From an uncultured Pseudomonadota bacterium (GTDB taxonomy: Bacteria > Chloroflexota > UBA5177 > JAJPKF01), in NCBI GenBank assembly GCA_963799725.1, contig CAWCYJ010000003.1:9795-73794 (forward strand): a stretch of DNA of 64,000 nt, read 5' to 3'. How positions within the stretch are numbered: position 1 is the stretch's first letter; each line of letters starts with the position of its first letter. The position numbers and the translations under genes were made by a program. The notes under the pieces are model-generated. The model did not search any database. It was not told the DNA's origin and was given only the letters and a program-made list of their open reading frames with translations. Positions 5,050 through 63,174 of the stretch are shown piece after piece.

Positions 5050-5253
5050 TCATCCGTTCCGTCTCCGAGCCGCAGCTTGCTTACTTCGCGCAAGCTCACG
5101 TCCCGACCACCAAAGGCCGACCATGAGCAGCGGAACTCCCATCGTGAGGTCGCCAAGGTTGCCCCTCATCAAGGCGTCGAAAAGAAGACCCATCCCCACG
5201 ATCCCCGCGAGCGTGGCGGCGGCCACCAATGCATGGTTCCTTATGGCGGTCAT
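5050..5253 (-). CDS. Small 2-TM membrane protein, last gene of the cytochrome b operon
   Basis: This is a 67-aa ORF whose ATG overlaps the upstream stop by 4 nt (ATGA). It has two hydrophobic segments, LVAAATLAGIVGMGLLF and GVPLLMVGLWW. Confidence 0.55.
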   Translation of the reverse strand: MTAIRNHALVAAATLAGIVGMGLLFDALMRGNLGDLTMGVPLLMVGLWWSGRELARSKQAAARRRNG

Positions 5254-6239
5254 CGTGCGGATTCTCCATCATTCGGGACGCGCGCGGGAGTGGTATGCTC
5301 TCGCTGCTCCCGATAGTAGTCTCTCCAAATCAGACGGTAGACCTTGAGGTAACGTGGAAGCCGATTGAGGCCCGGGATCCATGGAACCAGTAGGAGGATG
5401 AGGGTCAAGATCGCCACCGTGAGGATGGCGAGGGCATCAGTGTTGGCGGCCCAGGCCGTGGTGTACGGCGGAATCTGGTAGAGCATCGTGTACAGCCACA
5501 GCCACGCCTGACCTGGATAGTTTCCGGTCTCGTTCATGGCGCCCCAGGTGGACCCGAGCAGGTTGAACTTGGCCGCGTGGTTAGTGACGGCGTCGTTCTG
5601 CATGAACAACAGAGGCTTGGTGTAGTCGGTCTCGTAGAAATGGCCGCTGGTCAGCAGCAGACCATCCATGGCGCCACTTCTCCCGAGATTTAGCTCCGAT
5701 TTCATCATTGAAGCGACGGGGCCGCAAGCGCAGGCAGGAATATGAAGCTTGCGACCCACCAACGTGGACTTGTTGAGTGCTGCCTGAAGTGATGTCTCCC
5801 AGGCGCTCTGACGTGAGGGGCTGGCGAGGTTGAATGCAGCCAAGCTCGATTTCAGCCTGGGGTCGGTCGACGAGGCCGCCTTCAACGGGTTGAGCACGTA
5901 CGTGGTGCTGGTATTGATGGGGATGTGGACCCCGAAGAGCTTCTGCAGCGAGAGCGGGCCGATGTACTGAACCGATCCGGTTCCGTTGTTATAAGGAGGG
6001 CCGTAGCTAGAGATGGGGCTATTGCCGTCGAGCTCGTCTAGGGCCGTCTGCACAAAGATTCGGGGAGTTTGTGTTGCCACCCCTTTGAGTGTCAGAGGCG
6101 GCTCGTCGGGTGACGACAGGAACACCGACAGGAGAAGGACGAGAACCGTGACAGCTAGCAGGGCCAGCAGCAGCTCTCGCACGATGTCGTAAGGTGCCAT
6201 ACGCACGCCTCGATAGTATTGCTCCTTGCTGCTGCTCAT
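5250..6239 (-). CDS. Bitopic/polytopic membrane protein with a large extracytoplasmic domain, translationally coupled to cytochrome b
   Basis: The ORF is an intact 329 aa and overlaps both neighbours by 4 nt. It has an N-terminal TM (LLLALLAVTVLVLLLSVFL) and C-terminal TMs (WLWLYTMLY, ALAILTVAILTLILLLVPW). I saw no PEWY motif and no CxxCH. Confidence 0.65.
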   Translation of the reverse strand: MSSSKEQYYRGVRMAPYDIVRELLLALLAVTVLVLLLSVFLSSPDEPPLTLKGVATQTPRIFVQTALDELDGNSPISSYGPPYNNGTGSVQYIGPLSLQKLFGVHIPINTSTTYVLNPLKAASSTDPRLKSSLAAFNLASPSRQSAWETSLQAALNKSTLVGRKLHIPACACGPVASMMKSELNLGRSGAMDGLLLTSGHFYETDYTKPLLFMQNDAVTNHAAKFNLLGSTWGAMNETGNYPGQAWLWLYTMLYQIPPYTTAWAANTDALAILTVAILTLILLLVPWIPGLNRLPRYLKVYRLIWRDYYREQREHTTPARVPNDGESAR

Positions 6240-6892
6240 CGACTCGCCTCCTGCCCCGGGACGGCGGACGCAGGTGGATGACCCGTGCTTGTGCTTGGGC
6301 TTGGTCCTTCGTCATACGGCTTGACCACGCCGCGGATCCGAACTAGTGTCAGGTGCACGGCCATCAATGTCGCTACGGCCACTGGAAGGATGAAGATGTG
6401 AAGGCCATACATCTGACCGAAGTTGAGCACGTTAAAGAAGGCGCCGACGCCGATGGAGTTAATCGCGTCCTTCCCCTGAACTGCGATCCATTGTGAATCG
6501 AAGTTCTGCTGGGACACGTAGCCCGTGAAGGCTGTGCCGATTGACACCGCAAATGTGACCACCCCGGATGCCCAGGTCATACCACGGCCATCCCTCCAGG
6601 CACCCTGGAAGAAGGCGGTCCAAAGATGCAGCACCATAAAGAAAAAGAATGCCTGGACGGACCAGAAGTGGAGGCTATTGAAGAAGTGGCCGACGTTAGA
6701 GGAGTGCCACCACTGGGGTCCAAAGAACGACAGAACGACACCGGTTGCGATGAGAAGAACAAAGCTGGCGATTGTGGCCACGCCGAAGAGGTAGACGTAG
6801 CTGTGAACATACGCCGGTTGGTTCTCGGGGAGCAGCTCTTCGTACGGCAGGTCACGCGACAGTTTCCGCTGCAGCGCCCCTGTCAGACTCAT
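6236..6892 (-). CDS. Cytochrome b, N-terminal (b6-type) di-haem domain protein
   Basis: The 218-aa protein has four TM helices. Helix B reads SLHFWSVQAFFFFMVLHLW (H-x13-H) and helix D reads GLHIFILPVAVATLMAVHL (H-x14-H), which is the b6/Firmicute-type haem ligand spacing. Confidence 0.85.
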   Translation of the reverse strand: MSLTGALQRKLSRDLPYEELLPENQPAYVHSYVYLFGVATIASFVLLIATGVVLSFFGPQWWHSSNVGHFFNSLHFWSVQAFFFFMVLHLWTAFFQGAWRDGRGMTWASGVVTFAVSIGTAFTGYVSQQNFDSQWIAVQGKDAINSIGVGAFFNVLNFGQMYGLHIFILPVAVATLMAVHLTLVRIRGVVKPYDEGPSPSTSTGHPPASAVPGQEASR

Positions 6893-7029
6893 CGGCCGCG
6901 CCTCTTCTTGTTAGGAAATGGAACGAGTACAGCCAACACGAAGACTAGGATCATCAGCAGGATCACGGTGAGGTTGGCGACGGAAATCAGAATGAAGCCC
7001 CAATGGAAGTAATGTGCTGCAGCGTTCAC
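6889..7029 (-). CDS. 46-aa membrane mini-protein, first gene of the cytochrome b operon (below the ORF-track cutoff)
   Basis: A GTG start sits 5 nt after AGGGAGAG. The product reads VNAAAHYFHWGFILISVANLTVILLMILVFVLAVLVPFPNKKRRGR. Its stop overlaps the cytochrome b ATG (ATGA). Confidence 0.5.
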   Translation of the reverse strand: MNAAAHYFHWGFILISVANLTVILLMILVFVLAVLVPFPNKKRRGR

Positions 7030-7447
7030 GTGCTCTCCCTTCAAGAGTGGCGTGGAACCTGAACAAGCCCCACGGTGTCAGCTTAGCCCGAATCGGCTCG
7101 TTGGCTCCATCAGGCTGAGACCCGATATCCGGAGGATATGGGCCTGAGGCTGGCTCGGTTCTCCGTCTAGCGAGGCAGTTCGGCGGAAGCCAGAAAGGCC
7201 AAGAGCCTCACCAAGGACGAGTGGCTCCTAGGCGCCTAGGGGCGCCGTTGAGCTGCAGCGAGTCGTTCACTGGTTGCGGGAGGAACCAATTCGAAAGTCC
7301 GCATCGAGGAGCCTAACGGCAAAAGGGTGACTGGCAGGCTGGCTCGGCCCCCACGAGGCTCTCTGGTTTCGAAGTTATCCCGCCCGGGTAAGGACGCGAA
7401 TCGGTAGCCGCGAAGCGAGACCCAGCCGATGCAGAACAGGAGGCGAG

Positions 7448-13390: not shown

Positions 13391-13700
13391 GTTCAGCCTT
13401 CTGAGTTTCGACTGATCGCAGGCACGGGGTGATTCGGCAGACGCTCACGCTCCAGCGCTCTCAGAGCCGCCTAAAGGGCAGCCAGGTTTCCGTGAATGTC
13501 GCAAAAGGCAGTCTGACGCGCACGAGTGATTATCCCAGGGAGGGAGGCGGCTTAAGCGTCGCCGCCATCTGGCGCGGGCTGTACGACCGCGCTGTCCTGC
13601 ACTTGCAATCGGAGATCGGACAGAGCACTTTGCAGACCCGACTCAAGCGAGCCATTCCGGCCTGTCGAAACCCAGGCAACAGCTGATGAGAGCACCATCT
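13391..13700. repeat. Copy B: 3' end of the AAA ATPase gene plus ~160 nt downstream (homolog of 11224-11510)
   Basis: See copy A. The alignment runs through the stop codon at 13552. Confidence 0.75.
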
Positions 13701-14877
13701 CCTTGAGGTAGGCGAATGAGAAGCCATCTGTCTCACCGGCGAGACGATCGATAAGTTCCTCGCTAATCTGACCGGATGTCTCCAACTTTGAGTTCCATCG
13801 GGCTAGGTATTCGCGCCGCTCTGCGTACTCCGGCGGTCAAAGTAGTACCGGCGATCGAATCTGCTGGGCCGGTTAGAGATGGCGGGGTCGAGCTTTTCGG
13901 GGTGGTTGCTCGTTGCCACTGTCAGGATTCCCGCATTTTCTTCGAACCCATCGAGCTGGTTGAGGAAGTAGGAGCGATTATGCTCTGTTACCAGGGAGTC
14001 GATGTCCTCGATAATCAGCATGCAGGGCGATCTCTTCCGGGGCCTCATCGAATACGTCTTGGACGTCACTTTCACCACCGTGAAAGGTCTGAACGTAGAG
14101 ACATTGCCGATCGACCGCGTTGACTAGGGATTTAACGGTGTGGGTCTTCCCGTTGCCGGGGGGCCCGGTAAGGAGGATTCCTCGCTTCCATGGCGCGGCG
14201 TAAGATTCGTAAATCGCCTTCGCTTCAAAGAACCAGGTAATGTCATGCATGATCTGGCCTCTCATGCCGCTTTTCAACACCAGGTCATCGAACTTCGCCG
14301 CCTTGATGGCGGCGGCAAGCGGCTTGTTCTTGCTCCAGTGGTACCCGTCGTAGACGAGAATTTCCTCGCGCGTCTCCGAGTTCCAACGGCATACCGTAGA
14401 GAAGAAGGCATCTGCCATCTCAGGCGTATCAGCCAGTATGTATGTCCAACTCACTCCCCGGCCCTCTTCGCCGTCGCCCAAGGCGTGGATCAGCACCACC
14501 TCAAGCTCTTTGCCCTCCCAAGACACGTCGAACCATGCCTGTTTTGGATGTGGCTTCACCTTGCCCGTTTCATCGAACCATGACTTCACGAAGCGGCTCT
14601 GAGGAGAAGTGCGCACCCGAATTTCACAGTTGCCTTCCTCAACAAACTTGGTAAGGCCGAATCGGTGGTCGGCAACATCGAGCAGAGCTTTATCCGGAAA
14701 GAGGCGAGTCAGCTCATCGTGAATCATATATGGCCGCAAGGCTGGAATGCTTGAGAGTGCCTCATGGAAGAAATACTCGAGCTTCCTGTGCCGCGATCCT
14801 GTCTGCCGACCCGAATCGGCGAAACCAAAGTTGGCTTTCCGCTTGCTGGCCGGCAGGTCGTCGGGTCGAGCTGGCAT
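13552..14877 (-). pseudogene. Bcs1-like AAA+ ATPase with an uncharacterised N-terminal domain, 2 frameshifts as sequenced
   Basis: Walker A reads LLTGPPGNGKTH. After a frame change, Walker B reads CMLIIEDIDSL, followed by ATSNHPEKLDPAISNRPSRFDRRYYFD. A second change occurs at gg 13835-13836. One more C on the coding strand restores PPEYAERREYLARWNSKLETSGQISEELIDRLAGETDGFSFAYLKEMV. Confidence 0.8.
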
Positions 14878-15032
14878 TATGTCCTACCTGCCAAACGCTG
14901 CCAAGGGAATCCTAGGACATCATGTGCACCGACCTGACGCCTCGAATCGAGATTGTAGAGCGTGACGTTGAGGTAGGGCGAGATCAGGTCCCGAAGTGTA
15001 AAGCCGTAGCGGGAGTTGGTCCAGGATTCCAT
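14877..15032 (-). CDS. 51-aa hypothetical protein coupled to the AAA ATPase (below the ORF-track cutoff)
   Basis: The product reads MESWTNSRYGFTLRDLISPYLNVTLYNLDSRRQVGAHDVLGFPWQRLAGRT. Its TAA overlaps the ATPase ATG (TAATG). There is no SD. A TATACT hexamer lies 4 nt upstream. Confidence 0.4.
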   Translation of the reverse strand: MESWTNSRYGFTLRDLISPYLNVTLYNLDSRRQVGAHDVLGFPWQRLAGRT

Positions 15033-15036
15033 AGCC

Positions 15037-15057
15037 AGTATAGTCACGGTAACTATA
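15037..15057 (-). promoter_or_regulatory. -10-like TATACT overlapped by the palindrome TATAGT-N7-ACTATA
   Basis: The plus strand reads agtata at 15037-15042 and tatagtcacggtaactata at 15039-15057 (6-bp arms), immediately upstream of the 51-aa ORF. Confidence 0.35.
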
Positions 15058-15112
15058 ACGGTTTGGTGCTTTTACCGGCTTCCTTGATAGTCACGGCGAG
15101 AGAATAGCATCG

Positions 15113-36848: not shown

Positions 36849-37023
36849 CATGTGGATGGCTAATAAGGGTTCCGTTGATCACTGACCGGTGAAAGAGTCA
36901 ACCGGTGCCTGGCCACGGAGGACTGTTCCAATCCACCCTCCAGGCTGTGACTAGATGTAACCAAAGAACGAAGTAAGAGGCAGCCGTCAAGCGGCAAACA
37001 ATACAAAGCCGAGGAGGTTTCTC

Positions 37024-37411
37024 TTGCGTCGTTTCCATACTCTATCCATCCTCACAGTTTGCCTGGGTGTTGTCCTAGCGCTCAGCTCAATATCGTCAGG
37101 GTTCGCCTCGAGAGGCAGCGATGGGGTGGCTAGAACTACTCCCAAGCACGTTGTCAAGATCGTCAGAACCAGCGCCGGTACCTTCGCCTTCAGCCCAGCG
37201 ACAATCAAGGTCAAAGTGGGCCAGACGGTGACCTGGAAGAACAGCACCGGAACGGAGCACAGCGCGACAGCCAACAACTTTACGTCATTCGACACGGGGA
37301 CCATTCCAATCGGCGGGAAAGGCACACCACCAGTTCAAGAAGGCTGGGACGTTCAAATACCACTGCTCCTTCCACTCGTACATGAAGGCCGTCGTCAAGG
37401 TCGTCAAGTGA
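37024..37411 (+). pseudogene. Secreted cupredoxin (plastocyanin/amicyanin-like blue copper protein), 1 frameshift near 37315
   Basis: A signal peptide is followed by FAFSPATIKVKVGQTVTWKNSTGTEHSAT...FDTGTIPIGGK. The +1 frame then reads AHHQFKKAGTFKYHCSFHSYMKAVVKVVK then stop (H...C-x2-H-x2-M ligands). Confidence 0.8.
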
Positions 37412-37500: not shown

Positions 37501-38743
37501 ATGAAACTTCGTCGATATGTTTGGTCGATTACCGCGGTCCTTGCCCTGGTCTTGGTAGCAGGAGCCGCAGCGTACGCGCAGCGCCCGGCACAACCGAAGG
37601 GGTCATTCCTCGGTGCGTTGAACACAAAGCTATCGCTGAATGTCGGCACGACGCCGCATAACGGCGACGGCAACCCCTACGGCGTGGCTATTGTTCCCAA
37701 AGGGTTTCCGGCGGGAGGGAGGGTCCACTCCGGAGACATCTTGGTAAGCAATTTCAACAATGCTGCAGGAAAACAGGGACTCGGGCGAACCATCGTAGCC
37801 GCATCTCAAAGCGGTAAAGCATCTCTGTTCTTTTCCGCACCCCGTTCCATTAAGCAAGTTGGACTCACGACCGCTCTATACGCTCTTCGTTCAGGAATCG
37901 TCGTCGTTGGCAGCATGCCGACAACCGACGGTACTTCTGGCACCGTAACGGCGGGCAGCCTCATGTTTCTGAGCAAATCCGGATCCCTCCTACTCAACCT
38001 CCAGGACTCCCAGTTCGTGGACGGACCTTGGGATATGACCGCAGACGATCGAGTTACCGCCCGGCCGGTTCTCTACGTGAGCAACGTCTTGAACGGCACG
38101 GTGACGCGCATCGATCTGCACGTTGTTGGAGGCGATCCGACCATCGAGAGCATGACAAGGGTTGCATCGGGATTCCCTCAGCGTGCCGATCCCAGCGCCG
38201 TCTGGGTTGGACCTACCGGACTGCTGTTGTCAAAGAACGATCGATCCCTCTACGTGGCGGACACCGACAGCGACGCCATACGGGTCCTTCATGGCATCGA
38301 CACTGCGAAGAACGACTCTGCTGGTCGTGGAAGTGTGGTCATCTCCGGACCTCCGCTGGAGGGCCCATTGGGTCTTGCCTGGGCACCCAACGGGAACATC
38401 GTTACGTCAAACGGTGATGCGGTTGGTCCGTCACATACCAAGGCGAGCATCAATCGAGTCGTCGAGATCAGCCCTTCCAAACACAAGTTTGTCAAGATCT
38501 CTTCAGCTCGACAAAAGCGGCGTCCCCGGAGCCATCTTCGGTATCGCCATTGGCCCGATTAAGGGCCGAGAGTCGCTGATCTTCGTCGAGGACAATACCA
38601 ACAGCCTGGAGGCACGATCGCACAGATTGATCTCAAGGCCACGCGCCGTTCAACCTTCCAAGTCGATGCCGCATCAGCAGGTGTATCCCGACCCCGTACT
38701 ACTAGATGTAGGATCCACGCCGTTCGACATGTGCTCAGCCTAA
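37501..38743 (+). pseudogene. Secreted NHL/YncE-like beta-propeller repeat protein, 1 frameshift near 38500, C-terminal end uncertain
   Basis: The RBS taggagaagccga precedes ATG and MKLRRYVWSITAVLALVLVAGAAAYA. The repeats read NPYGVAIVP, LYVSNVLNGTVTRI, LYVADTDSDAIRVL and PLGLAWAPNGNIV. The tail continues in the frame of ORF 38162-38743 (DKSGVPGAIFGIAIGP...LIFVEDNTNSLE). Confidence 0.65.
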
Positions 38744-38753
38744 AACAGAAAGG

Positions 38754-39173
38754 ATGTCTTTGATGATTCGTTTCACCCGTGCCGCCCTCATTGTCTTTAT
38801 CGTCGGATTGTTCAGCTTCGCCACGCTGGGAACGTCGCTAGCCGCCCGTCACGCAGCGACCGAGAAGCTCGTGGTCCGCATCAACGCGACCCCGACCAGC
38901 TCAATAGTTTGGGGCTCTGTAAAGATCACCTATGCAGCGGCCGGCAAGACTCATACGGTCGGCGTCTGCAAGACTTCGAGCTGTACCTTCCACCCGCCTG
39001 CAACGGCTACGGTGACTCTCAAGGAGACGCCTAAAGACTCCGCGAGCTGGCCATTCAAGAATTGGACAGTCAAAGCCGGCGGGAAGACCAAGACCTACAC
39101 GGCGGCAAAGATCAGCTTCAAGATGAATAGCAGCGCAGCCACAGCAACTGCCACCTACCGCCTCCCCGACTAG
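38754..39173 (+). CDS. Small secreted Ig-like hypothetical protein
   Basis: The ORF is an intact 139 aa with the signal peptide AALIVFIVGLFSFATLGTSLA and a beta-rich S/T/K composition. Confidence 0.55.
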   Translation: MSLMIRFTRAALIVFIVGLFSFATLGTSLAARHAATEKLVVRINATPTSSIVWGSVKITYAAAGKTHTVGVCKTSSCTFHPPATATVTLKETPKDSASWPFKNWTVKAGGKTKTYTAAKISFKMNSSAATATATYRLPD

Positions 39174-39181
39174 GGGGTCGT

Positions 39182-39223
39182 CCATCAGGGTGAGCGCTCC
39201 TCCCTCGCTGCTCACCCTGATGG
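39182..39223 (+). terminator. Strong hairpin ending the cupredoxin cluster (no U-tract)
   Basis: ccatcagggtgagc / 14 nt / gctcaccctgatgg forms a 14-bp perfect stem. Confidence 0.5.
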
Positions 39224-39324: not shown

Positions 39325-40008
39325 GTGGCATTGCAGCAGAACGAGTCCCAAGAGTATGCTGATTTTGAGCCGTTCAGCGAGCAGTTGTTGTGGCTAATGC
39401 GCTGCACGCGTTGCCGGCAGGATTTCCCGGCCTCCACGACATCGGACTTAGAAGGACAGGTCCCTCACGATACTTTTCCGCAAGCTGTCGGGTCGGAGGT
39501 GAAGTCGTCGAGGGCCGGTGACCAGGAGGAAGTGTTCCAACGCTTCCTTGATCCCGTCTACCGCGTTATCTATCGCCAGGTCGGAAATCAGCAGGATGCC
39601 GAAGATCTCACCTCGGAAGTATTTCTCTCCGCTACCGGTAAGCTCGACGCGACACGGCCGGACAATGAAATCGGCAGGTGGTTGTTCACCGTCACCCGAA
39701 GAGTCATTGCCGATCACTGGAGACGCCACTACAAGCTCCCCCCACGTGTGGACATCGACCAAATCCAGCTGGCCGAAATTGTGCCGATTGACGCCGGACG
39801 GGTATCACGAGAAACAAAGTCCAGTTTTCTGCAGCAGCTTCTAGAAGGACTCACAGAGCGTCAGCGCTCGGTTCTCGAGCTTCGTTTTCTCCACGGATAT
39901 AGCCTTGAAGAGACGGCGGCCGAATTGAGCATCACCATCCAAAACGTCAAAATCATTCAACATCGAGCACTCGCCAAAGCGGCGGGAATGGCGGATCCAG
40001 GGTCATGA
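39325..40008 (+). CDS. ECF-type sigma-70 family sigma factor (start uncertain, probably downstream of 39325)
   Basis: Region 2 reads VYRVIYRQVGNQQDAEDLTSEVFLSA...WLFTVTRRVIADHWRR. Region 4 reads LTERQRSVLELRFLHGYSLEETAAELSITIQNVKIIQHRALAKA. Confidence 0.85.
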   Translation: MALQQNESQEYADFEPFSEQLLWLMRCTRCRQDFPASTTSDLEGQVPHDTFPQAVGSEVKSSRAGDQEEVFQRFLDPVYRVIYRQVGNQQDAEDLTSEVFLSATGKLDATRPDNEIGRWLFTVTRRVIADHWRRHYKLPPRVDIDQIQLAEIVPIDAGRVSRETKSSFLQQLLEGLTERQRSVLELRFLHGYSLEETAAELSITIQNVKIIQHRALAKAAGMADPGS

Positions 40009-40663
40009 ATACAGACGATCCATTTGATGAGGCACTCGAAAGCGTGGTGGAGGGCCAATCTCCAAAAGGGCAGGCTCAAGGCCTGACCGAAGAGGAGCGC
40101 CGTCTGTTGCAGGTGGCTCAGATGATTCGCGGAGCCGGCGACGCTAGACCCCAACCAGAGTTCTCGGAAGGTCTCGCCAGGCGTTTGCAGCCGAGACCCG
40201 ATCAGATCTCTCGCCGCACGGCCGTGATCTCTGGACTCAGTGCGCTGGCGGCAGGTCTGGCAGTTGGCTTTGGAGTAGAGCACGGGCTTGACCAACCCTC
40301 ACAGGAGCACTATTCCACCGCAGAAGCGGATCTGTGGGAGCCAACGGTCGCTGGGAGCATGTCGCCGCGATTCACGAGGTCCCTGAGGGGACCGTAAAGC
40401 CATTCACCTCAGGCGCGATCGCCGGCTTTCTCGTGCATCGCAACGGTCAGCTGTTTGGTCTTTCGGGCGTATGCACTCATATGGGATGCCTGCTGAAGTA
40501 CCGGGGCGGCCAGAACAGATTCAAGTGTCCCTGTCACGGAGCGGAGTTCGACCTTTCCGGAGGGCTCAAAGCCTACCCAGAACATGTCACGACAAAGCTC
40601 CCCGATCTTCCCCGCCTCAAAGTGCGGGTTGTGGGGCAATCGGTGCAGGTATGGACGGCCTAG
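40005..40663 (+). pseudogene. Membrane/Tat-anchored Rieske [2Fe-2S] domain protein in the anti-sigma position, 1 frameshift near 40340-40390
   Basis: The ATG overlaps the sigma stop (ATGA). The N-terminal 65 aa are soluble, followed by SRRTAVISGLSALAAGLAVGFG (twin-arginine/TM). The Rieske domain reads VCTHMGC...CPCHG in ORF 40334-40663. Confidence 0.75.
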
Positions 40664-40732: not shown

Positions 40733-41143
40733 ATGGACCCTGTAGTACATTTTGAGCTGCCGGCTGAAGACAGAGACCGGATGGCCACCTTTTACTCGAG
40801 CGCATTTGGCTGGAGAGCTCAAAAGTTCGGGCCAGAGATGGGTAACTACACAGTTGTCACTACGACGGAAACAGACGAGAGTGGCCGGCCCAAAGTTCCC
40901 GGAAGCATCAACGGCGGCTTCTATCTAAAGACTGAAGATGTCATCTCCAATGCACCGTCTGTCGTGATCGCCGTGGAAGACATCCAGACCGCGGTGACCC
41001 AAATCGAGAAGGCAGGTGGCACCATGCTCAGTCAGCCCAGCGAGATCCCCGGAGTCGGTCTGTATGCTGTCTTCCGAGACACCGAGGGAAACCGGATGAG
41101 CGTGCTTCAACCTCTACCGCCCCAATCGGAAGGTACAGCCTAA
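40733..41143 (+). CDS. VOC/glyoxalase-family protein
   Basis: The ORF is an intact 136 aa reading VVHFELPAEDRDRMATFYSSAFGW...GVGLYAVFRDTEGNRMSV. Confidence 0.8.
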   Translation: MDPVVHFELPAEDRDRMATFYSSAFGWRAQKFGPEMGNYTVVTTTETDESGRPKVPGSINGGFYLKTEDVISNAPSVVIAVEDIQTAVTQIEKAGGTMLSQPSEIPGVGLYAVFRDTEGNRMSVLQPLPPQSEGTA

Positions 41144-41247: not shown

Positions 41248-41739
41248 CTAGGAGGCCGTGGGAAGAAACTGGTCGGGGATGAGGCTCTTGATTCCGGGCA
41301 AGAAGTCGCGCATGCCCGCCGCCAAGTAGGAGGAACGCAAGCTGGCCGAGAGCATCGGATCATTCGCCCTTCCCGCAAGCACCAGTAGCGATTCGGCTAA
41401 AACGGCTCCCATAACCACGCCCAAGATGGCCCCCCCGATCTGATCAACCCTCCCGAGGCCGGGAAAGAAACGCAGGCCGTCGCGCACTGTGAGGGCGATC
41501 GAGGCGACCAGAAGGCAGAACAGAAGAAATACGGAAGCATACGAGACCGCGGTCAATGTTACGGAGCGGGTGAAGAAGTTCGCCAAAAAGTCATTGGCGC
41601 CACCATAGTTTTCTCGAGCGACGAAGAGCGCACACACGACGCCCGCGATCAGTGCGGCTTGAAGGAAGAGTCCTTTGGCCATGCCAAACACGGCAGAGGC
41701 CACCACCACCACAACGATGAGTATGTCTAGCCAGTGCAT
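41248..41739 (-). CDS. cvpA: CvpA-family membrane protein
   Basis: The ORF is an intact 163 aa reading WLDILIVVVVVASAVFGMAKGLFLQ... with four TM helices. Confidence 0.75.
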   Translation of the reverse strand: MHWLDILIVVVVVASAVFGMAKGLFLQAALIAGVVCALFVARENYGGANDFLANFFTRSVTLTAVSYASVFLLFCLLVASIALTVRDGLRFFPGLGRVDQIGGAILGVVMGAVLAESLLVLAGRANDPMLSASLRSSYLAAGMRDFLPGIKSLIPDQFLPTAS

Positions 41740-60024: not shown

Positions 60025-60853
60025 TCGTGAAGATTGGCGGTAGTGCCGGAATCGACTTGGAGGCGTTTCTCACCGATATCGCCTCCCTTGACGAGCCGCT
60101 AATCCTGGTACACGGAGCGAACGCCGAGCTGGATGCGCTGACCCGCAGGCTCGGCACCGAGCCGACACTCGTGACCTCAGCGGACGGCCAGGTCTCTCGA
60201 TTCACCGATGCGACCACCATGGACCTGTTTCTGATGGTTTATGCCGGAAAGGTCAACAAACGGATCGTCGAAGGACTGACCAGACGAGGCCGGAAGGCCG
60301 TCGGGCTCTGCGGCATGGATGGTGGTATCGTAAAGGCCCGTCGAAAGGATGCCATCCGCATCGTCGAAAACGGGAAGCGCGCGGGTGCTGCGGGGAGATT
60401 TCGCCGGAAGTATCGAGAGCATCGATCCGTTCCTGCTGCACTCCCTGCTCGACGCCGGCTACATTCCGGTTCTATGCCCTCCGGCGGTCAGTGACGAGGG
60501 AGACGCGCTCAACGTCGATGGCGACAAGATGGCCATGGAGCTGGCAGTGGCCGTAGGGGCTGAAAAGCTGCTGATCTTCTCGAACACCGCAGGGCTGCTT
60601 CGCGATCCTGCAGATCCGCTCGAGCCTCATCTCAAGCGGTGGATTGGAGGAGATGGGCGATCTGTTGGAGTACGCCCAAGGTCGAATGAAGAAGAAGATT
60701 CTGGCCTCGAAGGCAGCCCTGCAGCGCGGCATCGGAGAGGTGATTCTGGCCGACGCGCGCGTGGCCGAGCCGGTTCGAGCAGCGCTGAACGGCGCGGGTA
60801 CTCACCTTGCCGTGGCTCCCGTTAGGAAGGAATTGGAGGGATCTCTATCATGA
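60018..60853 (+). pseudogene. lysZ: [LysW]-aminoadipate/glutamate kinase (acetylglutamate-kinase family), 2 frameshifts
   Basis: The sequence reads MLVVKIGGSAGIDLEAF...LILVHGANAELD...GKVNKRIVEGL. It then continues VLRGDFAGSIESIDPFLLHSLLDAGYIPVLCPPAVSDEGDALNVDGDKMA and ends MKKKILASKAALQRGIGEVILADAR. Confidence 0.85.
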
Positions 60854-62071
60854 CGACTGCACTTCCGGAAGACCGACCGAAGGAAACCTCGGAGCAAGGG
60901 TCTCACCGCTTTCAGGATCAAGGGGAGATTCACCTCTACAACAAGCGGGAGATTCAGCTGGTTCGGGGCGAGGGCGTCTACCTTTGGGATGACATGGACC
61001 GCCGCTACCTCGACGCCATGAGCAACTACGGCGTCAACGTTCTCGGGCACAAACATCCTGCCGTCGACGCGGCCATCAGGTCTCAGCTCGACAGGCTCAT
61101 GAGCTGCCATCAGAGCTTCTATAACGACGCCAGGGAGGAGTTCGAGAAGACCTTCCTCGCACAGCTACCTCCCGAGCTGCAGCGCGCTGTCTTATGCCAA
61201 CTCGGGCGCCGAGTCGATCGAGGCGGCATTGAAGTACGCTCGGGCTGCCACGGGCCGGCGGAAGATCGTTGCCACCCAGCATGGCTACCACGGACGAACC
61301 ATGGGAGCCCTTTCCATTACCTCGGGTGAGAAGCATCAAGCGCCATTCCGTCCACTTCTTGCGGATTGTGAAGCGGTTGCCTTTGACGATCTCGAGGCCC
61401 TGGAGGCACAGATGCCGGATGCTTCCGCGGTAATCTTGGAGCCGATCCAGGGCGAGGCAGGCGTTAACGTGCCATCCGTCGAGTACCTCAAGGGCGTAAG
61501 GCAGCTTTGTGATCGTCACGCGGCTCTGATGATCCTTGACGAAGTTCAGACAGGAATGGGTAGGACAGGAAGACTGTTCGCGTTCGAACATAGCGGTGTG
61601 ATCCCCGATATCCTGGCAGTATCCAAGGGCATTGCCAACGGCCTTCCCATGGGTGTCACGGTGGTACGGGAAGACATCGCGAGCCGGATCGAGACGGGTG
61701 CGCACGGAAGCACGTTCGCCGGCAATCCTTTGGCCTGCGCGGCGGCAAGCGCGACGGTACAAGCCCTAACCAGCGGCCGGCTTCTGGATGACGTGGCCGC
61801 CAATGGAGCCGTCTTCATTGGAGATCTGAAGGGCTTGAATCAGCGAATGATTCGCGAGGTAAGGGGCGTTGGCTATATGGTGGCTCTCGAGCTGCGTACC
61901 CGCGTGACTCCCTACCTTCGCGCTCTGCAGGAACGGGGTGTTCTGGCCCTGCCGGCAGGCGGCCGCTCCATGCGCCTTCTCCCGCCTCTCATTGCCGAGC
62001 CGCAGCACCTCCGAACGATTGTCGAAACCATCGACACGGTCTTGGCAAGATGCTCAAGGCAGCGCGGCTGA
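60850..62071 (+). pseudogene. lysJ: [LysW]-aminoadipate semialdehyde / acetylornithine aminotransferase (class III), 1 frameshift near 61195
   Basis: An ATGA overlap links it to the upstream gene. The sequence reads VRGEGVYLWDDMDRRYLDAMSNYGVNVLGHKHP. It then continues NSGAESIEAALKYAR...HGYHGRTMGALS...LILDEVQTGMGRTGRLFAFEHSGVIPDILAVSKGIANG. Confidence 0.9.

Positions 62072-62093: not shown

Positions 62094-63174
<1,081 letters not shown>

Follow-up and report, generated by a model that had tools for sequence, protein, structure and literature searches.

Gene layout at the locus

What lies between positions 39325 and 40663 of the DNA described here? The window, by which we mean the whole stretch of 64,000 nucleotides that was analysed, comes from contig CAWCYJ010000003.1 of an uncultured bacterium (assembly GCA_963799725.1, placed by GTDB in the Chloroflexota). 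This part of its forward strand holds the gene for an extracytoplasmic function (ECF) sigma factor (39325..40008, +) and, directly behind it, a gene for a Rieske [2Fe-2S] protein that we consider here as a candidate anti-sigma factor. The TGA stop of the sigma gene overlaps the ATG of the second gene at position 40005 (ATGA), as the preliminary description of this DNA had reported. The open reading frame (ORF) that starts there, 40005-40397, encodes 130 residues and has no Pfam or NCBIfam match; the Rieske domain is encoded behind it, in the −1 frame of the same strand, by 40334..40663 (PF00355, 6.8e-15). Read through, the two pieces match intact proteins of 213-222 residues with an identity of up to 59%, and a separate clade of longer homologues measures 264-270 residues. 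Where the homologues have been named, they are annotated only as Rieske proteins, as nitrite reductase/ring-hydroxylating ferredoxin subunits, or as cytochrome b6-f iron-sulfur subunits. No second copy of the Rieske-protein gene was found in the source genome.

The sigma factor gene is assigned from its domains. ORF 39325-40008 matches Sigma70_r2 (PF04542, 4.3e-14) and Sigma70_r4 (PF04545, 5.1e-14), it scores 91.8 bits against the NCBIfam superfamily model TIGR02937 (cut-off 42.9), and the domain search returned no match to sigma region 3. This places it among the ECF sigma factors (sigma-70 group 4), whose members have regions 2 and 4 and lack regions 1.1 and 3. Because its homologues are only 182-202 residues long, the true start probably lies downstream of 39325, for example at the ATG at 39397. 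BldN is the best PDB match of the window's sigma factor (6dxo_A, 3.6e-16), and the BldN family TIGR02952 is the top NCBIfam match, at 100.6 bits and under the cut-off of 206.45. In a Streptomyces genome that encodes both proteins, the true BldN scores 263 bits against TIGR02952 and the Rieske-linked sigma factor scores 62.6 bits. By sequence comparison, then, the window's sigma factor is closest to BldN, yet it is not a BldN orthologue and does not belong to ECF121 proper. Its group may already be catalogued, as ECF125- or ECF127-like with an ECF121-like anti-sigma factor.

The downstream protein is built in three parts. Residues 1-67 (40005..40205, +) form an N-terminal domain that is predicted to be cytoplasmic; it is followed by the twin-arginine sequence SRRTAV (Arg70 and Arg71) and a Gly/Ala-rich hydrophobic segment (40212..40274, +), and then, past the frame change, by the Rieske domain. 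This order of N-terminal segment, Arg-Arg with membrane segment and Rieske domain had been recognised in the preliminary description, and our alignments show it to be a trait common to the whole family. Both arginines are invariant in the family alignment, and in 64 of 66 homologues the pair stands immediately N-terminal to the hydrophobic stretch, as [ST]RRxxL. The source genome encodes TatC (173.7 bits). We read the two arginines and the weakly hydrophobic, Gly/Ala-rich segment as a signal-anchor of the twin-arginine translocation (Tat) pathway, so that export of the Rieske domain is predicted. Placement of this domain outside the membrane would follow because the N-terminal domain must be cytoplasmic to meet the sigma factor, and it fits both the Tat-type motif and the presence of disulfide cysteines.

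The Rieske domain itself is of the complete bc type. Its boxes fall at 40472-40489 (CTHMGC) and 40526-40540 (CPCHG), and the family alignment shows them as CTHMGC and CPCHGA. Within this alignment the cluster ligands Cys157, His159, Cys175 and His178 are invariant, as are the disulfide cysteines Cys162 and Cys177. The structural model of the domain has block-mean values of the predicted local distance difference test (pLDDT) that are mostly above 94. Its top Foldseek match is the bc-type chain 8hn2_A (E 5e-10, TMt 0.77, root-mean-square deviation 2.1), with further structural likeness to b6f-type Rieske proteins, the Kuenenia Rieske protein kuste4569, the arsenite oxidase small subunit, and PetC3.

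The coding sequence of the Rieske protein is interrupted, and the meaning of this interruption bears on everything that follows. Since intact homologues read through DLVGxNGRW without a break, the −1 frame change can be placed at about 40332..40336 (+), from the translations of the two pieces and the homologue alignment. One explanation is that the pair is decaying into pseudogenes in the source genome, and that the frameshift here and the one in a nearby cupredoxin gene (described below) are both real. Two putative members of the same module would then be frameshifted within 3.3 kb; moreover, three genomes of the window's own family (84-92% complete) have neither the Rieske protein nor the N-terminal domain, and synteny with a genome of the same genus is broken at this point. 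On the other side, the Rieske frame is fully open past the shift with every conserved residue intact, and ordinary genes of the window are split in the same manner. The domain of a LysY-like semialdehyde dehydrogenase (62413-63171, +) runs over three frames at consecutive model positions, and that of an AAA ATPase (13555-15071, −) runs over two; a cytochrome b-like gene (5053-7077, −) and an aminotransferase gene (60575-61326, +) are probably split too. The assembly thus appears to hold many indel errors. A second rpoB copy (G000 contig C21:40926-43657) is shattered into at least four frames with an internal TAG, whereas contig C2 has an unbroken rpoB. The bin thus seems to include a contig that is foreign or of low quality, and the shattered copy shows that parts of the assembly are error-prone. 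We consider real decay of the pair quite unlikely. Because housekeeping genes of the same window are split likewise, the frameshift in the Rieske-protein gene is most likely an assembly error rather than biology, so that the single frameshift noted in the preliminary description is present in the sequence as deposited but probably not in the organism. Programmed frameshifting was also considered and rejected: the site lacks a slippery heptamer, and over 60 of the homologues are encoded by a single ORF.

Conservation of the pairing and a candidate anti-sigma domain

Is the arrangement peculiar to this genome? A survey taking one genome per species yielded 80 loci. Of the 70 loci most similar to the query, 67 have an ECF sigma ORF as their immediate upstream neighbour on the same strand. 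The other three comprise two loci at the end of a contig and one whose protein has no N-terminal domain. With start codons chosen by us, the two genes overlap by 4 bp in 37 of 66 loci and by 8 bp in about 20. The genes of three homologues on long contigs are each immediately preceded by an ECF sigma gene that overlaps them by 4 bp, and their other neighbours differ. The carriers belong to several classes of Chloroflexota, to Dormibacterota, and to many Actinomycetota, including Catenulispora, Actinocrinis, Streptomyces, Actinomadura, and Streptacidiphilus; the remainder are one Eisenbacteria metagenome-assembled genome (MAG) and single MAGs labelled otherwise. An outgroup of 13 more distant Rieske proteins, from Poribacteria and others, has neither the N-terminal domain nor a sigma gene. 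In a sister family of the same order as the window's genome, an intact copy is present in 10 of 12 genomes. The co-occurrence of sigma factor and Rieske partner, which the preliminary description had put forward as a check on its idea, is therefore kept across several phyla. None of the findings that it named as refuting this idea came up in our analysis.

A variant of the arrangement is seen in four Ktedonobacterales loci (L059, L060, L063, and L071). Here the sigma and anti-sigma genes lie in one frame and do not overlap; they are set 5-23 codons apart, with a TGA stop between them and, in all but one of these loci, another stop as well. The candidate anti-sigma protein has a longer N-terminal extension. 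With translation table 4, the two genes of L071, and likewise those of L059, give one continuous chain.

What might the N-terminal domain be? An alignment of 28 N-terminal domains shows three conserved helical stretches. None of the 28 contains a Cys/His zinc motif (HxxxCxxC), a zf-HC2 domain or an RskA-type domain, and the domain does not fall in class I (ZAS) of anti-sigma factors; the preliminary description had likewise recognised no zinc motif in the protein. By profile comparison, the domain aligns with the N-termini of RsbN-type proteins. RsbN is the anti-sigma factor of BldN; its ectodomain is DUF5667, and a Streptomyces genome encodes an RsbN whose N-terminus matches PDB chain 6dxo_D. 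In a search of 201 Actinomycetes genomes, the profile of our N-terminal domains matches an Aeromicrobium DUF5667 (RsbN-type) protein with an E-value, calculated per genome, of 1.7e-6. An RsbN-type profile was then built from the N-termini of homologues of this Aeromicrobium protein. With hhalign, our N-terminal domain and these DUF5667/RsbN-like N-termini align at a probability of 81-87% with E-values of 1e-5 to 4e-6, and the 56-57 columns of the alignment take in all three helices. In the controls a reversed alignment reached at most 15 and 30 column shuffles at most 11, against 32-35 for the real alignment.

The likeness extends to residues that matter in RsbN. That protein consists of three helices, and BldN contacts its residues Phe14, Leu18, Leu43, Leu46, Arg67 and Leu70 (PMC6101532). 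In the joint alignment, the family motif F-x3-L of helix 1 falls on RsbN Phe14 and Leu18, and the family motif R-x2-L of helix 3 falls on Arg67 and Leu70; the window's own helix 3 reads A-R-R-L. An AlphaFold2 (AF2) model of a homologue with 57% identity places helices at residues 3-15, 29-45 and 51-62, with a short turn at 21-24 and block-mean pLDDT of 77-91 across residues 1-60.

The same domain also appears outside the Rieske family. A profile search of 1.84 billion representative sequences returned 701 proteins at E<=0.001. Among the best 150 of these 701, most of the long proteins carry a Rieske domain, some with degenerate ligands, and one distinct group joins the N-terminal domain to a beta-rich ectodomain that is not a Rieske domain. 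In each of the three contigs examined for this group (L121:503-1165, L122:3501-4163, and L123:3501-4163), its gene shares 4 bp with the gene before it. That preceding gene encodes a full ECF sigma factor in L123 and a fragment with sigma region 4 in L122; in L121 it is unannotated at the contig edge. Proteins of this group have about 220 residues, comprising the same N-terminal domain, a transmembrane segment and an unannotated beta-rich ectodomain. Genes for YceI and Lipoprotein_15 proteins recur close to them. From these comparisons, a class III-like anti-sigma domain is the most plausible identity of the N-terminal domain, which would be a head reused with at least three ectodomains and is predicted to bind the sigma factor. 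The protein had been placed in the anti-sigma position by gene order in the preliminary description, and the resemblance of its head to the RsbN class III domain by profile agrees with that placement.

These findings must be set against a rival explanation, namely that the downstream gene encodes a Rieske protein with a plain role in electron transfer, such as that of partner to a cupredoxin, and is merely the first target in the operon of the sigma factor. The N-terminal helices of the protein would be a membrane-proximal extension that does not bind the sigma factor, and the true anti-sigma factor would be encoded elsewhere or would not exist. In its favour, the bc-type Rieske domain is complete, none of its ligands or disulfide cysteines being absent, cupredoxins are natural redox partners of Rieske proteins and recur nearby, and the N-terminal domain is without a match to curated anti-sigma families. 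The same explanation does not readily account for an N-terminal domain that is kept across phyla and is RsbN-type by profile, or for the recurrence of this head on two other ectodomains, beside an ECF sigma gene wherever the upstream gene is identifiable. Furthermore, the overlap of start and stop is typical of partners made in a fixed ratio, and no cytochrome b or c partner stands among the annotated neighbours, not all loci having been searched for one. We regard an ordinary Rieske protein as very unlikely.

A recurrent motif, cupredoxin genes and a proposed mechanism

Which genes might the sigma factor control? The 80 family loci contain 82 matches to a directional motif, [TC]GTAACC-N5-6-CGTAT, compared with 7.7 in shuffled sequences (maximum 12). 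It is found 30-100 nt ahead of the sigma gene and also, in the same orientation relative to the gene, ahead of cupredoxin genes; 30 of the 80 loci have a cupredoxin gene no more than 3 kb away. In several Actinomycetes a cupredoxin gene is divergent from the sigma gene, and the space between the two holds two copies of the motif that point outwards in opposite directions. The spacing of the half-sites is about one helical turn less than usual, as exemplified by L030:1919-1960 and L044:1941-1990. A reading of the motif as a canonical ECF promoter (−35, N16-17, −10) was tried and is not supported; only a weak enrichment of TGA is seen 7-11 nt past CGTAT, where a canonical −10 element would lie.

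In the window, a gene for a secreted cupredoxin (blue copper protein) lies 1.9 kb upstream of the sigma gene, at 37024..37411 (+). It is split by a frameshift, and its read-through matches PF00127 (8.3e-8) and PF13473. About 50 nt ahead of its start is a tentative motif-like site, TGTAACCAAAGAACGAAGT (36956..36974, +), which has three mismatches to TGTAACC-N6-CGTATC and a perfect TGTAACC half. We consider this cupredoxin a likely member of the regulon. A second tentative site, weak on its own, TGTATCCCGACCCCGTACT (38682..38700, +), also has three mismatches and lies about 55 nt before ORF 38754-39173 (+), which encodes a small secreted protein of 139 residues with a weak Pfam match only; from its position and the motif-like site alone, it is a possible regulon member. 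The number of three-mismatch sites in the window is not above chance, and a strict search for GTAACN{5,9}CGTA found no match in the window.

Taken together, we propose that the products of the two genes are cognate partners, an ECF sigma factor with a single-pass anti-sigma factor that would serve as both inhibitor and sensor; judged from the sequence comparisons above, we hold this to be probable. In the mechanism that we envisage, the first approximately 65 residues of the anti-sigma factor would fold into three helices of the RsbN type (class III) that hold the sigma factor at the membrane, and the twin arginines and mildly hydrophobic segment would be a Tat signal-anchor that is not cleaved. 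The Rieske domain would fold and gain its [2Fe-2S] cluster in the cytoplasm before being placed outside, where this bc-type domain, including its disulfide cysteines, would be the sensor. A change of redox state or loss of the cluster would then destabilise the anti-sigma factor or lead to its proteolysis, and the sigma factor so freed would transcribe its own operon and nearby cupredoxin genes from GTAACC-N5-6-CGTAT sites. The preliminary description had suggested that such a protein would link envelope redox, iron or oxygen status to ECF-dependent transcription. Redox keeps its place in our proposal, and the recurrence of cupredoxins makes copper or electron-transfer status at least as good a candidate as iron or oxygen.

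What the sensor would perceive can be imagined in two ways, neither of which we would favour strongly. First, the Rieske domain could trade electrons with a cupredoxin that is itself under control of the sigma factor, so that the sigma factor would report the redox state or copper-loading of an extracytoplasmic electron-transfer chain; the motif would be read with a non-canonical spacing, one helical turn shorter. We offer this more specific version only as a doubtful possibility. Were it true, it would represent a new class of ECF input in which an iron-sulfur cluster is read outside the cell. Second, Tat export itself could be the checkpoint, in which case the signal would not be read outside the cell. 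Rieske proteins need cluster insertion ahead of Tat transport; when cluster assembly fails owing to a shortage of iron or sulfur or to oxidative damage, Tat proofreading would reject the precursor, and its degradation would free the sigma factor. The invariant arginine pair before a weakly hydrophobic Gly/Ala-rich segment is typical of Tat substrates, and the genome has TatC, both of which agree with an export checkpoint. The regulon signal, however, points to cupredoxins and not to genes for iron uptake or iron-sulfur assembly, and family members with degenerate ligands persist. An export checkpoint is in our estimation unlikely.

A number of observations weigh against our proposal of a sensory anti-sigma factor and its regulon, and they concern the head, the cluster, the distribution and the motif. 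With regard to the head, none of the 28 N-terminal domains has a Pfam match even at E<=10, in line with the preliminary description, which had found no recognisable anti-sigma motif; nor does the domain have a PDB sequence match at E<=10. The link to the RsbN-type profile is moderate and runs via the Aeromicrobium homologues, and hhalign of the N-terminal domain profile against one single Streptomyces RsbN sequence gave no signal. With regard to the cluster, two homologues (P0213 and P0174) have kept the Rieske fold and lost the cluster ligands, with CPCRNA and CPCDLA in place of CPCHGA. Because these proteins lack the ligands, the cluster is not always needed, and the ectodomain may work cluster-free in some lineages. 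The absence of the protein from three genomes of the window's own family, described above, belongs here as well. Finally, the half-sites of the motif resemble ECF −35 (GTAAC) and −10 (CGT) elements and are 6-7 nt apart, versus the usual 16-17, and no clear site was found ahead of the window's sigma gene. The motif may thus not be the promoter of this sigma factor.

Relation to known systems and neighbouring genes

The closest characterised system is RsbN and sigma-BldN of Streptomyces venezuelae (ECF121; PDB 6DXO; PMC6101532). As in that system, an ECF sigma gene stands beside the gene for a single-pass membrane protein, here a candidate anti-sigma factor, whose cytoplasmic head has three helices, here as modelled by AF2 for a homologue, and no zinc motif. 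The differences are several. The ectodomain is a Tat-type Rieske [2Fe-2S] domain here and DUF5667 in RsbN, and the cytoplasmic part has about 65 residues here and 117 in RsbN. Likewise, RsbN has been reported to be restricted to Streptomyces, whereas the present family is found in Chloroflexota, Dormibacterota and many Actinomycetota. The putative targets here look like cupredoxins, while those of BldN are chaplins and rodlins.

A second comparison is with the groups ECF125 and ECF127, which, according to the part of a 2022 review that we consulted (PMC8999054, after Casas-Pastor et al. 2021), adjoin genes for ECF121-like anti-sigma factors of unknown mechanism. The product of the neighbour gene described here is likewise similar to RsbN-type anti-sigma factors by hhalign, at a probability of 81-87%. 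In that part of the review (PMC8999054) the partners are called soluble, and neither a Rieske domain nor a Tat anchor is mentioned in it, in contrast to what we find. The weak hydrophobicity of the anchor may explain the label 'soluble'.

The ectodomain, in turn, invites comparison with Tat-exported, anchored Rieske proteins such as the bc1 and b6f subunits, PetC3 and the arsenite oxidase small subunit, with which it shares the fold, the CTHxGC and CPCHG boxes, the disulfide cysteines and the arginine pair before the anchor. Unlike in bc1, b6f and arsenite oxidase, no cytochrome b or molybdoenzyme partner was found among the annotated neighbours. With respect to all of these proteins, PetC3 included, the family differs in having a conserved domain of about 65 predicted cytoplasmic residues before the arginine pair and in the coupling of its gene to a sigma gene.

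An iron-sulfur cluster in an anti-sigma factor has a precedent of another kind. RsmA of Streptomyces coelicolor, the anti-sigma factor of SigM, binds a [2Fe-2S] cluster on which its anti-sigma activity depends. RsmA is a soluble, HATPase-type anti-sigma factor that lacks a Rieske fold and is not exported, and its partner is a SigB-like sigma factor and not an ECF one. The sensing modes of ECF anti-sigma factors include zinc-thiol switches, proteolytic cascades, partner switching and ligand-binding ectodomains, and we know of no characterised ECF anti-sigma factor with an exported iron-sulfur cluster. Similarly, in the literature that we searched there was no experiment or paper on a Rieske-domain anti-sigma factor, in agreement with the preliminary description, whose author was aware of no characterised example.

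If the proposal is correct, the RsbN (class III) fold, which was thought to be confined to Streptomyces, becomes a modular head that is combined with at least three ectodomains, and copper and electron-transfer proteins of the envelope become tied to transcription. Soil Chloroflexota, Dormibacterota and Actinomycetota commonly carry members of the family; the copy in the source genome is itself a frameshifted example in an error-prone MAG.

Finally, we note the features that flank the pair. It is followed by a gene with a glyoxalase/bleomycin-resistance fold (40733-41143) and by a gene for a CvpA (colicin V production) membrane protein (41248-41739). In the genome of the same genus, relA/spoT follows the CvpA gene, so that the block of sigma, Rieske and glyoxalase genes is not syntenic. 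Upstream, between ORF 38754-39173 and the sigma gene, lies a long GC-rich hairpin, CATCAGGGTGAGCG...CGCTGCTCACCCTGATG (39180-39223), which could stop transcription coming from upstream.

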